Shown here: positions 20,203 through 51,502 of the stretch, in pieces
How the letters are laid out: the number at the start of each line of letters is the position of its first letter
Numbering within the stretch: the first letter of the stretch is position 1
NCBI RefSeq assembly: GCF_003334255.1
Contig: NZ_QOWU01000037.1
Length of the DNA stretch: 51,502 nt
Source of the DNA: Escherichia coli
GTDB lineage: Bacteria; Pseudomonadota; Gammaproteobacteria; Enterobacterales; Enterobacteriaceae
Direction: 5' to 3' (one strand)
Program-made: the position numbers and the translations under genes
The notes under the pieces: generated by a model
Told to the model about the DNA's origin: nothing
The model's database searches: none
What the model saw: only the letters and a program-made list of their open reading frames with translations

Positions 20203-20702
20203 GATTCGATGATTTTCAGAAACGGGTTAGTGGCTTTCTTCTGCCCCGCCAGGCCAATCAGACGCTGGCGGCTGCTGGGGTCGAGTCCGAGCATTGCCCC
20301 CGTACTGCTCATCTCGGACTCCTGTTCTTTTTTGGCGGTCAGCTCCGGATTTTTGACCATACCGCCCATTGCACCGGTGATGGTGTTGCCCTGTCTGGCA
20401 ATATTTTTCACGGCACGTCGCCAGAACTCGTAGGCCACGCACCACCGCTCAAGCACCGCGAGGTCAGTCACGCACAGCAGACCCTGACCGCAGAGTTCTT
20501 TAGTTGTCAGTTGCCACATGATCGTAGCGAGAGGGAGATCTTCTTCAGCGAACCACTCCGGTGGCTCAACACCTTTGATGGGCGTAAAAACAGGTTCATC
20601 TTTATTCAGGGCTCGCTTGCCGGGGTTTCCGGCCAGCGCCTTGCGCGCCGTTGGCTTGGGGCGACGCCCGGAACGCCCCGCCGTTCCAGCCATATGCGGC
20701 AC
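20199..20702 (-). CDS. Terminase small subunit, P27 family
   Basis: 167 aa; basic N-terminus; paired with HNH endonuclease as in HK97-like cos phages. Confidence 0.8.
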
Positions 20703-38488: not shown

Positions 38489-38564
38489 TGGTGCCGATAA
38501 TAGGAGTCGAACCTACGACCTTCGCATTACGAATGCGCTGCTCTACCAACTGAGCTATATCGGC
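38489..38564 (-). tRNA. thrW: tRNA-Thr (anticodon CGU), thrW; phage attachment site
   Basis: GCCGATATAGCTCAGTTGGTAGAGCAGCGCATTCGTAATGCGAAGGTCGTAGGTTCGACTCCTATTATCGGCACCA; cloverleaf with CGT anticodon and encoded CCA. Confidence 0.9.
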
Positions 38565-46456: not shown

Positions 46457-47014
46457 TTATCCTTCGATAAAAGCCATCCCTGTAAATGTCCGTCGCGGGT
46501 TGCCACGTTCAATCTGGTGATGGAACATTCGCCGCTGCGATTTCAGCGCCGCGCTATTTTCCTGTTGCTGTTGCTCCAGCTTCCAGGCAATCAGCAATCG
46601 TGCCAGCCGCTTGTTAGCATGCTGACTACGCTCTGACTGAACCTTCACGCTAATACCGGATGCCAAATGCGTGGCGCGTACCGCCGAGTCGGTTTTATTG
46701 ACATGTTGACCGCCCGGCCCCGACGAACGCAGCGTCTCATAACGGATTGCATCCGATTGTTCCTGCTCATCAGCGGTAAAACGCCCAATGCCCAGAAACC
46801 AGTTTTTGCGCCCATGATGAGGCCGATACGGACTCGGACAAATCCACTGAATAGTGCCACACCAGCTTTCGCTTAATGCCCATGCGTTATCGCCATCGAG
46901 AGAAACCAGCGCCGAACGCAGTGTGTCAGAGTAGCGGCCCGTTTCTGTTTCCAGCACCGTTACCGCGACGTCTTGCCGGGTAAAAACGACCAACAGAGAA
47001 GAACGCTGCGCCAA
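46457..47014 (-). pseudogene. prfH: prfH remnant (peptide chain release factor H homologue lacking native N-terminus)
   Basis: Contains GGQ motif ([12 protein letters not shown]) and PrfH C-terminus, but N-terminal ~30 aa replaced; overlaps rtcB fragment as in the K-12 ykfJ-prfH deletion. Confidence 0.6.
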
Positions 47015-47192
47015 TCGGGTAGCCGCGTCCGGGGTGTAAATCTGGCATCCCCACTACGCGCTGCATGTTGGGTAAATTTGCCGTGGTGTGTAATTGTTGG
47101 ATCGCTAAACTCTCGATCCACAGGTCATCAGATGCGATGGTAAATACCGCATCGGATAAGGGACGAATATATTTGCCCATGTACCATTCCAT
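46926..47192 (-). pseudogene. ykfJ: RtcB-family RNA ligase N-terminal fragment (ykfJ-like)
   Basis: [51 protein letters not shown]... = RtcB N-terminus, then frame lost after ~65 aa. Confidence 0.6.
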
Positions 47193-47497: not shown

Positions 47498-47950
47498 TTA
47501 ATGTTGCGGTTTATATCGCATATAAAAATTAGTAAACCACGCTCCCCGGCATTCAACGCGCTGCTGCTTAACTGTCTGAAAACCATAACGTTCAAAAAAG
47601 GGTTTTGCGGTTATGCTTGCGTCCACCGTAAGTTCGGATTCAGACTTAATCAAAGGTTTTAACAAAGCGCTGGCAACCCCACGGCGGGTGTATTCAGGGT
47701 CAACAAATAACATATCGATATAATGTTCAATGCGGGAAATAAAACCAACCGGTTGTGCATTAATGATCGCAACCCACACTTGTGATTTCGCGAGTTTCTC
47801 CTTCCAGCGAGATTCGTCAATCTGCGCCCAGGCGGAAATTTGTTGTGGTGAATAATGCTGACTGGCGGTCATCGTAACCGCTCTAATGAAAATAGCGCAT
47901 AGTTGCTGAAAATCGCCAGGCTGATAGTTTCTTATTTGTATGTTATTCAT
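47498..47950 (-). CDS. yafP: GNAT-family acetyltransferase YafP
   Basis: 150 aa; K-12 dinB-yafNOP operon synteny. Confidence 0.85.
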   Translation of the reverse strand: MNNIQIRNYQPGDFQQLCAIFIRAVTMTASQHYSPQQISAWAQIDESRWKEKLAKSQVWVAIINAQPVGFISRIEHYIDMLFVDPEYTRRGVASALLKPLIKSESELTVDASITAKPFFERYGFQTVKQQRVECRGAWFTNFYMRYKPQH

Positions 47951-47959
47951 AATATAAAT

Positions 47960-48358
47960 TCAAAAACGCATGCGAAACGCTTCTGCCATTTTCCCAATTT
48001 TATGCATTTGGTTGTTATCTCGAGCCAGTTTATGAGGTTCAGGTTTCAGAATGGCAATGAGCAACCATGCTTGCTCATCAAACGCCCCCTGACAATATAC
48101 CAAATGCGCTTCGTCATTCGTTCTGCTGAATTGGCGCAACTGTGGCGGAAATGGATTATTCTCATTTGCCAGATGAATATGAGCAACTCGCTCAAATTTG
48201 ATTAATGGCCAGGTAAAGGAGTCGTCGTAGAGTGCATCGCGACCAAATATATCTGGCAAAACACCGTCACGCTTATAGGAAATAAAATCCGCCGTTAACG
48301 CATCAAGTTCCTCTGCTGTAAGTTGCAGGCGAATAAGTTTTGTTTTGAATACCCGCAT
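47960..48358 (-). CDS. yafO: Toxin YafO (ribosome-dependent mRNA interferase)
   Basis: 132 aa MRVFKTKLIRLQLTAEELDALTADFISYKRDG... Confidence 0.9.
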   Translation of the reverse strand: MRVFKTKLIRLQLTAEELDALTADFISYKRDGVLPDIFGRDALYDDSFTWPLIKFERVAHIHLANENNPFPPQLRQFSRTNDEAHLVYCQGAFDEQAWLLIAILKPEPHKLARDNNQMHKIGKMAEAFRMRF

Positions 48359-48360
48359 CC

Positions 48361-48654
48361 TTATTCCTTAAAGTCATTGAAATCATCATCCGTCATATCA
48401 TTAAGATATTGTTCAGCGCGGCGTGTAATTTCCTCTAATCTTGCAGCACTTGGACGGAAGCGCGCCTTTATGGGCTTTTTCTCCTCTTGTTCAGCAAGCA
48501 TGTCCATTAACGCTTCGAATGCGCTGGCACTTAAGAGATATCCTGCGGGGCGATTATTAGAAAGAACCGCAACCGGTTGATCAATAAAGTATTTAGCTGG
48601 GTTTTTACGTAACTCAGTGATATTGACCGATTTTTCAGCGAGAATTCGATGCAT
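48361..48654 (-). CDS. yafN: Antitoxin YafN
   Basis: 97 aa MHRILAEKSVNITELRKNPAKYF... Phd/YefM-like. Confidence 0.9.
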   Translation of the reverse strand: MHRILAEKSVNITELRKNPAKYFIDQPVAVLSNNRPAGYLLSASAFEALMDMLAEQEEKKPIKARFRPSAARLEEITRRAEQYLNDMTDDDFNDFKE

Positions 48655-48705: not shown

Positions 48706-49770
48706 TCATAATCCCAGCACCAGTTGTCTTTCCATTTGCGGGTCAAGCAACGTCACATGCAGCCCCACCAGACGCACACCGCGCCCGCCGCGGCGTTCAT
48801 CCCAGGTTTTACGCGCGGTGGCGATTAGATCAGCTTTATTCAGCCGCGGCCAGACGTGCTCCTGGGTGGTTTGCTGAAAATCGTCGAACTTTAATTTCAC
48901 CCCCTGGCGAGCAATCAGTAAATCAGGTTTTACCTTTGCCAGACGGCGTTCAAGTTCCGGATACAGCCGCTCGATAATCGCTTCACATTCAGACCAGTGA
49001 TGAATATCTTCCGCCATCGTGCGTTCCACGCCGACGGATTTTCGCAACCGTTCGCTGTTAACATCGCGTTCGTCAATCCCCTGACTACGCTCCCACAAAA
49101 TGCGGCCAAATTTGCCAAAGCGTTTAAGCAGCATCACCAGATCACACTTTTGTACATCACCGCAGGTCCGCAGCCCCATCGCTTCCAGTTTTGCCGCTGA
49201 GACTTTGCCGACGCCGGGGATTTTTGCCAGCGGTAAGGTTTGTAAAAATGCCGGAACTTCTGCCGGCGTAATCACAAACTGGCCGTTGGGTTTATTCATG
49301 TCGGAGGCGATTTTGGCGAGAAACTTTACTGGTGCCACGCCCGCAGACGCCGTCAGTTGCAGCTCGTTGAAGATTGTCTGGCGGATTTCCTGGGCGATGA
49401 GGGTCGCAGAACCGTGGCAATGGACGCTATCGGTGACATCGAGATAAGCCTCATCCAGTGACAACGGTTCAATGCGCGAGGTGTAGCGCGAGAAGATTTC
49501 ACGGATATGATTTGAGGCTTCTTTGTAGGCGTCAAAGCGCCCCGGAAGCAAGGTGAGATGTGGGCATAATTTGAGCGCCATCCCTGTCGGCATAGCGCTA
49601 CGTACGCCAAATTTACGCGCGGGATAATTGGCGGTGCTGATCACCCCCCGACGTTCGCGGCTGCCGCCAATAGCAATAGGGATATCGCGCAGGGCGGGAT
49701 TGTCGCGCATCTCCACTGCGGCGAAAAAGCAGTCCATATCCACATGAATAATCTTCACTTTCTTATGCAC
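48706..49770 (-). CDS. dinB: DNA polymerase IV (DinB); 5' end and promoter differ from K-12
   Basis: ...[31 protein letters not shown]... Y-family polymerase; only GTG starts available (49770 or 49758); sequence upstream of codon ~4 unrelated to the K-12 dinB leader as I recall it. Confidence 0.85.
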
Positions 49771-49816
49771 CCTGTGGATTTATACATATAAAGAGATTAT
49801 ACACACAAAAGCAAAA

Positions 49817-50587
49817 TCAGTAAGTGCCGCGTTTATTCGGATTCACGCTAAACTTCCGTAAAGCATTACCCGACTTAAGCACCTTTGAAGCTTGCTCATT
49901 AGCTGAGGCTGTGAAGGTGCTTTTTCCATTCTCAACTTTGACACTTTTACCACAATTGATACGGGCTTGAAGTTGCTCATTAGTGAGTTCACTCGTAGAG
50001 CGATTATATAACTCCTGACACAGCAACATACCATTACCTAAACTTGTTGTAGTGTTACCTGTATTCTTCTTAGAAGTTGCACCACCATCATTCGTGGTAG
50101 CTGTTTTGCCAGTAGCTGCTGAGACATCAGTTTGTCCTACGATTGAACGAAACTCTACACCTTGGAAGGTCATCTGAATACGAAGACCGTTAGCAATGGT
50201 ATGCTCTTTACTCGCTTTAAACTGAGTAATGATACTATCAGTGATAGCTATTCCATCTCTACAAACAATAGTGATGATTTGCTTCTGGTCTCGCCATTGT
50301 TCAACCGTAGAAATAAAGGTTTCTACAAGTTGCCCCTGTCTGGTTAATAGAACTGAACCCGTCGAATCAACCACTACAACACCGCTAATAGAGATGGTCT
50401 TAGGTGCTCTCTGAACATTATCAGTGATAGTTTGCCCCGATTGCATAGCCTGAGTTGTCACCATCATCGGTGAGTCATAGTCCATCTGTTCAGTAGCTGT
50501 TAAGGCAAGAAAAGATTCTACATTATCTCTAAGGTGAAAATAGATACCATCTTTACCTGAGTATCTAATTTGCTTTGTGTCAAACAT
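49817..50587 (-). CDS. Hypothetical protein in low-GC islet (256 aa); Thr/Ser/Asn-rich central region
   Basis: ORF in ~40% GC DNA between dinB and IS629; no motif recognised. Confidence 0.45.
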
Positions 50588-50630
50588 TGTTGTTATTCCT
50601 ATTCTGTTAAGCGTGAGCTACGTGAAATCT

Positions 50631-51433
50631 TGAACCGCCCCGGAAATCCTGGAGACTAAACTCCCTGAGAAAGAGGTAAACAGGATGACTAAAAATACTC
50701 GTTTTTCCCCCGAAGTCCGTCAGCGGGCGATTCGTATGGTTCTGGAAAGTCAGGATGAATATGACTCACAGTGGGCGGCAATTTGTTCCATTGCCCCAAA
50801 GATTGGCTGTACGCCGGAGACTCTGCGTGTCTGGGTTCGCCAGCATGAGCGGGATACCGGGGGCGGTGATGGAGGGCTCACCACCGCTGAACGTCAGCGT
50901 CTGAAAGAGCTGGAACGTGAAAATCGTGAACTGCGCCGCAGTAACGATATCCTTCGCCAGGCTTCCGCTTATTTTGCGAAGGCGGAGTTCGACCGCCTCT
51001 GGAAAAAATGATGCCACTGCTGGATAAGCTGCGTGAGCAGTACGGGGTCGGACCGGTATGCAGCGAACTGCATATTGCCCCGTCAACGTATTACCATTGT
51101 CAGCAACAGCGACATCATCCGGATAAACGCAGTGCCCGTGCGCAGCACGATGACTGGCTGAAGAGAGAGATACAGCGCGTATACGATGAAAATCATCAGG
51201 TGTACGGTGTGCGTAAAGTCTGGCGTCAGTTGTTACGGGAAGGAATCAGGGTGGCCAGATGTACAGTGGCGCGCCTCATGGCGGTTATGGGACTTGCCGG
51301 TGTTCTCCGGGGTAAAAAGGTCCGCACTACCGTCAGCCGGAAAACCGTTGCCACAGGTGACCGCGTAAACCGTCAGTTCGTGGCAGAACGTCCTGACCAG
51401 CTGTGGGTGGCTGATTTTACTTACGGTGTGCCC
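50631..51433 (+). mobile_element. IS629 (IS3 family) 5' fragment, interrupted before the DDE domain
   Basis: Terminal TGAACCGCCCCGG; orfA and orfB proteins match recalled IS629. orfB frame diverges after ...WVADFTY and stops. Confidence 0.75.
50685..51011 (+). CDS. IS629 OrfA (transposase HTH/leucine-zipper subunit)
   Basis: [42 protein letters not shown]... Confidence 0.85.
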
Positions 51434-51490
51434 GGAGTTCAGGGCGGGCATGGATGCTTAAATGAACCGCGAGTCTGTCTGGAATATTGA
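51008..51490 (+). pseudogene. IS629 OrfB transposase, truncated (160 of ~296 aa)
   Basis: [46 protein letters not shown]... then unrelated C-terminus GVPGVQGGHGCLNEPRVCLEY and stop. Confidence 0.7.
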
Positions 51491-51502
51491 ACCGGTAACT
51501 CA

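Follow-up and report, generated by a model that had tools for sequence, protein, structure and literature searches.

Several elements that encode large serine recombinases insert within genes: Listeria A118 in comK, Bacillus SPbeta in spsM, and mycobacteriophage Bxb1 in groEL1; phiC31 is another such system. A large serine recombinase is also found in PLE of Vibrio cholerae, a satellite of the virulent phage ICP1 that encodes its own replication initiator and integrates in VCR repeats. Here, we describe the start region of dinB, the gene for DNA polymerase IV (Pol IV), in a 51,502-nt stretch of Escherichia coli DNA (contig NZ_QOWU01000037.1; hereafter the window), where an islet of foreign DNA lies directly upstream of the gene. 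We propose that this islet is, with good probability, the recombination scar of an ~11.4-kb serine-recombinase element that docks at the start of dinB; its effects on dinB expression are put forward conditionally.

Bxb1 attachment (att) sites with a symmetric core, which work in either alignment, were reportedly engineered by Ghosh et al. in 2003. With A118 integrase, a symmetric core removes polarity and allows productive synapsis either way, with deletion and inversion products (PMC3556126). Hybrid sites, an attP of ~50 bp, and a 2-bp crossover without duplication are hallmarks of large-serine-recombinase sites, and synapsis of attP with attB is symmetric (PMC3783163). In Streptococcus pyogenes, the ~13-kb phage-like island SpyCIM1 occupies the 5' end of mutL and is reported to control a mutator phenotype; SpyCI prevents transcription of mutL and works through excision that depends on growth phase, and some SpyCI provide a promoter that rescues downstream expression (PMC4689407, PMC3430984, PMC4129442).

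The dinB junction and its attachment site

Pol IV is behind much SOS- and stress-induced mutagenesis, and dinB heads an operon with the YafNO toxin-antitoxin. Four features define the junction in the window:

48706..49758, minus strand: dinB (DNA polymerase IV) coding sequence, 350 aa from GTG49758, MKIIHVDMD... (open reading frame list, Pfam, and K-12 identity)
49724..49774: hybrid attachment site (attR/attL type), with the host arm at 49724-49747, core AT at 49748-49749, and element (P-type) arm at 49750-49774
49750..50630, minus strand: element remnant ("Dit arm"), 881 bp, all that the window holds of the ~11.4-kb element (blastn with the GB089 element)
49817..50587, minus strand: Dit-like phage tail/baseplate gene, intact, 256 aa, last gene of the element (Pfam PF21821, phrog_3721)

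From K3 to its end, the DinB protein is identical to that of K-12 (349/349 residues). Its polymerase IV domain set is complete in Pfam (IMS PF00817, E=5e-51; PF11799, PF11798, and PF21999; IMS_C and IMS_HHH present), and the N-terminal VDMD catalytic motif is kept. DNA similarity between ordinary E. coli dinB and the window ends at 49749-49755, much as an earlier note, made from this DNA without database searches, had placed the beginning of K-12 similarity near codon four. The note had also supposed that the native promoter, SOS box, and first codons had given way to foreign low-GC DNA with IS629 beyond it, and alignment to the K-12 dinB upstream region confirms that the K-12 promoter is not intact here: the leader, LexA box, Shine-Dalgarno (SD) sequence, and ATG-CGT are all missing (K-12 ...aaatcACTGTATACTTTACCAGTGttgagaggtgagcaATGCGTAAAATCATTCATGTGG vs window minus strand ...TATAATCTCTTTATATGTATAAATCCACAGGGTGCATAAGAAAGTGAAGATTATTCATGTGG). 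In their place, ~880 bp of foreign DNA lies between the dinB junction and IS629, with a GC content of 0.40-0.42 over 49800-50700 vs 0.52-0.55 within dinB. Codons 1-4 of K-12 (ATG CGT AAA ATC) are exchanged for element-derived GTG AAG ATT, and the rebuilt N-terminus reads MKIIHVD, i.e., K-12 without R2.

The islet had been described as anonymous DNA beside an insertion sequence (IS) event. Relatives instead point to a site-specific recombination junction, the same in genomes without IS629. In the complete genomes of GB089, 1218KP, and APEC O18, the islet's dinB junction leads into a conserved ~11.4-kb element between lafU and dinB, and a remnant of a larger element, as the note had thought worth looking for in related genomes, is thus what relatives reveal. 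Among 5426 complete E. coli genomes, at least 26 (~0.5%) have the element at this position; carriers include B2 strains, avian pathogenic E. coli (APEC), and food isolates, among them the colitis/cancer model strain NC101. When the GB089 element was compared with the window by blastn, the match was confined to 49649-50630. In order, its genes are those for a large serine recombinase of 514 aa, for a coiled-coil protein, for a second, small serine recombinase, and for a replication-initiator-like helix-turn-helix protein; then come small open reading frames (ORFs) with or without HNH and Dam, and the genes for proteins of 234 and 71 aa, a 688-aa tape-measure protein, and the Dit-like protein. 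The 514-aa integrase of GB089 carries PF00239 (Resolvase), PF07508 (Recombinase), and PF13408 (Zn_ribbon_recom) and matches phrog_95 integrase (E=3e-73); other annotations on the element include a TMP_3 domain and replication-initiator PHROGs.

To define the junction, we compared the empty site of K-12 with both element ends in nine complete genomes, eight draft or metagenome loci, and five further contigs. The attB site is the dinB start region, ATGCGTAAAATC[AT]TCATGTGG, and attP was reconstructed as CAGGGTGCATAAGAAAGTGAAGATT[AT]GATTTTCACTTCCTAAAACACCCCT, a ~50-bp imperfect palindrome whose arms are inverted repeats with 17/25 positions identical. There are four junction types, and in every copy the switch falls exactly at the same palindromic AT (window 49748-49749). 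In the window-type arrangement, these are the only bases common to both parents at the switch point, and we therefore take them to be the 2-bp crossover. No target-site duplication was found at the element junctions. On the lafU side of GB089, the junction reads ...ACTGTATACTTTACCAGTG...ATGCGTAAAATC[AT]GATTTTCACTTCC... and then enters the integrase gene (int). Read outward, both element arms have the form GGGTG-N9-GTG-AAR-ATY-AT, and the dinB frame is restored as MKIIHVD either way round. The nearest genomes, 100% identical to the window up to 49749, carry an empty, intact attB. We also compared attP with attB for an inward displacement of the zinc-ribbon motif by 5 bp; the offset of the GGTG motifs is only about 2 bp, and we make no claim on this point.

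The same junction extends beyond E. coli. On metagenome contig L032 (993-1851), the Dit arm is joined at the same AT to another dinB promoter with its LexA box TACTGTATACTTAAACAGTG, and the dpaA flank is just 85% identical to E. coli. By its sequence, this contig places the element at dinB in another, non-E. coli enterobacterial species as well; because the arm here joins the dinB promoter of a different species, the target appears conserved beyond E. coli.

Like A118, SPbeta, Bxb1, and phiC31, the dinB element combines a resolvase + recombinase + zinc-ribbon integrase with a ~50-bp pseudo-palindromic attP, a 2-bp crossover, and hybrid attL/attR sites in a host gene. Unlike them, it targets the region around the start codon and restores the beginning of the ORF rather than splitting the gene. 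Its core, AT, is self-complementary and the element occurs in both orientations in nature, whereas a single orientation and an asymmetric core are typical of large serine recombinase elements. Its integrase is just 34-39% identical to the nearest relatives.

Two orientations of the element

Both orientations of the element exist among complete genomes: the window type, in which the Dit arm adjoins dinB, in 8/5426, and the inverted type, in which the integrase arm adjoins dinB and the Dit arm lies at the displaced native promoter, in 18/5426. An identical integrase (WP_023277944.1) is encoded by GB089 and 1218KP, which are window-type, and by TUM9757, which is inverted. NC101 has an internally deleted derivative of 5.55 kb (L005 16001-21551), and this 5.5-kb derivative recurs with 0 mismatches in the opposite orientation in AB_24_S34 and SCU-484 (L014 14097-19631 and L015 14097-19654). 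The flanks of NC101 differ from those of AB_24_S34 and SCU-484 at only 7/8680 and 8/10643 positions (99.92% identity). An inverted derivative without mismatches in near-identical flanks implies that the flip postdates the deletion and took place within one lineage, and the comparison indicates that it was recent.

By analogy with the symmetric-core A118 sites, we infer that the element may integrate, re-integrate, or invert without polarity owing to its self-complementary core. Direct attL x attR inversion and excision followed by re-integration cannot be told apart from these data. Inversion of the Hin/Gin type by the small recombinase was considered and rejected: the breakpoints are the host-element junctions, each with one host-type and one element-type half-site, which presumably bear no resemblance to hix/gix sites. 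RecA-mediated inversion was likewise rejected, as the terminal inverted repeats are merely ~13-26 bp and imperfect. The dinB element resembles the engineered symmetric-core A118 sites in its symmetric dinucleotide and two orientations (PMC3556126). It differs from the engineered A118 and Bxb1 sites, which are laboratory mutants, in that the symmetric core is apparently natural in both attP and attB, as known here from sequence. The locus would thus provide a natural symmetric-core serine-integrase site, otherwise known from engineered substrates.

Taken together, we propose that an ~11.4-kb phage-like integrative element recombines at the 2-bp AT core within the dinB start region. Integration would move the native promoter, LexA operator, SD sequence, and codons 1-4 to the far end and place element DNA before codon 5; these native elements are indeed found displaced to the far end of complete copies, and in the window they are simply absent. 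The window copy would represent the orientation with the Dit-like gene adjoining dinB, and IS629 with a group II intron would later have inserted upstream of that gene, severing the rest of the element. Translation of dinB would start at GTG49758 with an SD sequence weaker than the native one, and transcription would come only from weak element signals (the TATAAT at 49796-49801, which lacks a -35) or from read-through of the Dit-like gene. The genuine SOS operator of dinB would be lost.

The element swaps the promoter, operator, ribosome-binding site, and start codon of dinB in two configurations, and it could make strains that are nearly identical in other respects differ in mutation supply and in the timing of SOS. 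As with SpyCIM1, a small phage-like island would sit site-specifically at the 5' end of a DNA-repair/mutagenesis gene and take over control of the operon; it departs from SpyCIM1 in that the dinB ORF is rebuilt and that host, recombinase, and target gene differ. In the window strain, the authentic SOS control of dinB would be gone, and K-12-like behavior of the gene cannot be taken for granted.

Start codon, candidate LexA box, and rival accounts of dinB control

Two GTG codons compete as the start of dinB. GTG49770, which had been taken as the start, has an SD strength of only -1.9 kcal/mol with a spacer of 0; it touches the candidate LexA box and has no usable SD sequence, nor room for one. 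GTG49758 has -3.9 kcal/mol with a spacer of 9 (native ATG, -7.1), and gene callers in relatives choose its equivalent, yielding a 350-aa DinB. Because of this better SD sequence and the 350-aa calls, GTG49758 is the likely start. RefSeq calls are inconsistent among element carriers: some give 343 aa from Met9 (L001 11307-12338, L003 20562-21593, and L013 13055-14086) and others 350 aa from the element-derived GTG (L002 14057-15109 and L005 21541-22593). Missing from the 343-aa product are residues 1-8 of K-12 DinB, which include a catalytic aspartate. One locus is thus annotated with two DinB lengths in RefSeq, a source of confusion.

The candidate box, a possible -10 hexamer, and a second box on the other arm of the element are as follows:

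49770..49789: LexA-box-like 20-mer; core 16-mer at 49772-49787 CTGTGGATTTATACAT, in dinB orientation ATGTATAAATCCACAG; 13 nt upstream of GTG49758
49796..49801, minus strand: TATAAT hexamer, a possible -10 located 8 nt upstream of the box; an acceptable -35 is lacking
L002 26529-26544, with its equivalent in L003 near 20471-20486 (outside the window): integrase-arm LexA box CTGGATAAATATACAG, heterology index about 5, abutting the integrase ATG and followed by TATAAT

As the earlier note had stated, CTGTGGATTTATACAT at 49772-49787 fits CTGT-N8-ACAG with one mismatch, which places ATG for CTG in one half-site in all copies. The box ATGT...ACAG is invariant among element copies, and the spacer alone varies (CC/AT/CT). 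Of the two origins that had been offered for it, fortuitous or imported, the second holds: all copies examined have the box as a conserved portion of this arm. We scored it with a heterology index (HI) from a 20-nt matrix built on a list of 30 E. coli LexA sites, of which only dinB, dinG, recN1-3, and polB were verified in K-12 sequence; on this scale the box has an HI of 14.0, worse than all 30 reference sites (2.0-11.3), and ranks 7th among 51,483 window positions. The box shares with the canonical E. coli SOS boxes (dinB, polB, dinG, recN) the CTGT-N8-ACAG layout and an AT-rich spacer, and it resembles the polB box; it differs from them in its ATGT half-site, where LexA operators have CTG/CAG on both sides, and in a score beyond the reference range.

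Promoters were sought with a simple consensus scan only, and on the minus strand it detected no sigma-70 promoter over 49650-50700, including where the box stands between TATAAT and GTG49758. No terminator was found between the Dit-like gene and dinB. The element's strong LexA-like box, CTGTAT(A/G)TT(T/C)ATCCAG (HI 4.9-6.0), lies on the integrase arm and faces dinB only when the element is inverted. The only promoter that the scan found on this arm is directed inward, towards int (TTTTCA-17-TATAAT), and its -35 falls within the attP arm. When the element has the window-type orientation, int is also read from the native SOS promoter of dinB, via a 9-codon leader (MRKIMIFTS).

Four other accounts of the locus can be set against the serine-recombinase scar. 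One, in line with the substitute LexA box of the earlier note, is that LexA acts on the imported box at 49772-49787 and keeps dinB-yafNOP under SOS regulation. That the box is present and conserved stands: four haplotypes differ in the spacer only, and the APEC O18 variant ATGTATAAATATACAG scores better (HI 10.7). Its position just downstream of TATAAT and before the start would let a repressor bound there prevent initiation; the polB box CTGTATAAAACCACAG, present in K-12, is very similar to it; and its high rank in the window is a further point for it. In the K-12 dinG site and recN box 3 (sequences verified), one half-site likewise has another base in place of the C of CTG, and these sites bind LexA. 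Yet the HI exceeds that of every reference site even though the matrix was trained on them, the mismatch falls in the CTG trinucleotide itself, and one-mismatch matches to CTGT-N8-ACAG number 24 in the window vs 15.4 +/- 4.3 in shuffles, so that the criterion is not above chance. No sigma-70 consensus promoter was found for the box to control, and the clear LexA box of the element is on the other arm. We therefore regard the box as a weak LexA operator at best, and SOS control through it as possible, not likely. A related account sees dinB as effectively silenced, promoterless and with a poor start, its intact ORF reflecting only the recency of insertion. The lack of a consensus promoter within 900 bp upstream, the GTG start with its weak SD sequence, and flanks 100% identical to empty-site strains, which imply a recent event, all fit silencing, as does the frequency with which PGAP misses the start and annotates the 343-aa product. 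Against it, every inspected genome with the element has an unbroken dinB, and these genomes span two species and three to four diverged element haplotypes, no terminator separates it from the Dit-like gene, and a TATAAT is present; we consider silencing rather unlikely. Judged from these signals, expression of dinB-yafNOP in the window is most likely lower and poorly SOS-inducible rather than constitutively high.

Distinctly less probable is an adaptive switch, in which an invertible cassette would toggle Pol IV control between the strong-box integrase arm and the weak-box Dit arm, the window copy being frozen by IS629. Both orientations occur in near-identical backgrounds, both arms retain the SD-like GGGTG-N9-GTG and the reading frame, the inverted element aims its strong box and the TATAAT behind it at dinB, and the window-type orientation puts int behind the native LexA-controlled promoter. 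But mixed orientations within one culture are without support, the outward promoter on the integrase arm failed the consensus scan, and the element is present in only ~0.5% of complete genomes; moreover, integrase binding needs arm symmetry anyway, of which the two GTGs may be a by-product, and the strong box, abutting the int start codon, may simply regulate int. The last account, an illegitimate or IS629-mediated rearrangement that fused unrelated prophage DNA to dinB, is effectively refuted. IS629 does adjoin the islet, IS elements often cause adjacent deletions, and no complete genome has the combination of dinB, Dit-like gene, and IS629; still, the dinB junction is base-identical in many genomes without IS629, with its mirror image at the lafU side, and IS629 lies 880 bp away from it.

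Several points weigh against the serine-recombinase scar and the expression effects that we attach to it. The cores of natural serine integrases are normally asymmetric. The integrase gene, the integrase arm, and lafU are all outside the window, and the link to the element runs via relatives. No carrier of the integrase was found among sequenced phages (best match 34%, YbcK-like), and GTDB species representatives contain no close relatives, merely distant Clostridia recombinases (22-31%). Domain and PHROG annotation recognized no recombination directionality factor among the element proteins, and the excised attP junction (circle junction AAGTGAAGATTATGATTTTCACTT) was not found in IMG/VR or JGI metagenome contigs. 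The intact dinB ORF could merely mark recent insertion rather than continued function, and the only partly verified site list behind the HI matrix and the simple consensus scan count on the same side.

The Dit-like gene, IS629, and neighboring features

The 256-aa protein noticed earlier is present and intact (49817-50587) and need no longer be called hypothetical: it matches Pfam Dit_like (PF21821, E=1.2e-17) and phrog_3721 (E=2.9e-127), and its RefSeq name is "phage baseplate protein." Among public assemblies, 184 indexed blocks contain exactly this protein, every time at the element end. Virulent FelixO1-like myoviruses (Ounavirinae) encode a protein ~70% identical to it just behind their tape-measure gene, and their tape-measure protein is the best match for that of the element, at 28-29% identity over the full length and in the same gene order. 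The loci concerned are:

window 49817-50587; L002 16112-18178; L028 4740-7777: Dit-like and tape-measure matches between the element and Ounavirinae

Element size (~11.4 kb) and synteny are constant among copies. Combined with the serine integrase, the replication module, and this constant size, the FelixO1-like tail-gene pair suggests a satellite or assembly-interfering island aimed at FelixO1-like phages, which we offer as a lead rather than a finding. The tail-gene pair akin to virulent FelixO1-like phages hints, in turn, at a new E. coli satellite or anti-phage island. Like PLE, the element is a small island with a large serine recombinase, a replication initiator, and a relation to a virulent phage, here the FelixO1-like tail-gene synteny; unlike PLE, it sits in a gene start rather than in VCR repeats, and the likeness is one of gene content. 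PADLOC matched no defence model on the element, just coiled-coil noise, and no free or circular form was found in viral collections. A more far-reaching reading, which we hold only tentatively and as improbable on balance, is that of an undescribed enterobacterial island that would unite a FelixO1-like satellite or parasite, a flip-capable symmetric core at the dinB start, a strong or weak LexA box depending on orientation, and int under the dinB SOS promoter in one orientation. If true, DNA damage, element mobility, and Pol IV mutagenesis would be coupled. In the literature that we searched, from which most subscription papers are missing, neither this element nor dinB as a site of attachment is described, nor are insertions between lafU and dinB, natural symmetric cores, or FelixO1 satellites; this is not proof of novelty.

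Integrase homologues form one tight cluster of 334 members (96-100%), the next relatives being 39% identical, and the homologue search returned no intermediate relatives for testing box conservation. The small serine recombinase is on the same strand as the integrase in 1218KP and TUM9757 and on the opposite strand in GB089 and APEC O18 (L001, L002, and L013), and the element middle is mosaic among copies. The small-recombinase region is possibly an internal invertible or exchangeable module.

Upstream of the Dit-like gene, the window ends within an interrupted insertion sequence:

50631..51426, plus strand: left part of IS629/IS1203 (IS3 family), with the left inverted repeat from 50631 (TGAACCGCCCCGG...), orfA at 50685-51011, and the 5' part of orfB
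50966-51082: ALIL frameshift pseudoknot in IS629 (Rfam RF01497, 121.5 bits)
51427..51502, plus strand: probable group II intron 5' end in IS629 orfB, beginning GTGTG (GTGTGCCCGG...); the window ends 76 bp in

This insertion sequence is 96-99.5% identical to annotated IS629/IS1203 copies and has the inverted repeat, orfA, and pseudoknot of the IS3 family. It is inserted 43 bp upstream of the Dit-like ATG. IS629 had been read as truncated, but it is probably interrupted at 51427 by a group II intron rather than cut short by a deletion. The sequence from 51427 is colinear with the copy in strain EC1, where ltrA (reverse transcriptase) follows ~600 bp later, and the IS629-plus-insert arrangement is 100% conserved in >2000 E. 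coli genomes, within "IS3 family transposase" features (also at L024 2296-3371). Rfam gave no match for the 5' part of the putative intron.

Downstream of dinB, the genes of its operon are intact (open reading frame list), with order and names identical in RefSeq relatives:

48361-48654, minus strand: yafN
47960-48358, minus strand: yafO
47498-47950, minus strand: yafP

Farther along, tRNA-Thr(CGT) (thrW) at 38489-38564 adjoins a tyrosine-integrase gene, and from its sequence most of the window upstream of thrW appears to be a thrW-integrated prophage or island. Upstream of yafP (46457-47192), prfH and an rtcB-like gene are reduced to short fragments, with ORFs of 185 and 88 aa, as in K-12-type strains; both genes are full-length in GB089, NC101, and APEC O18.

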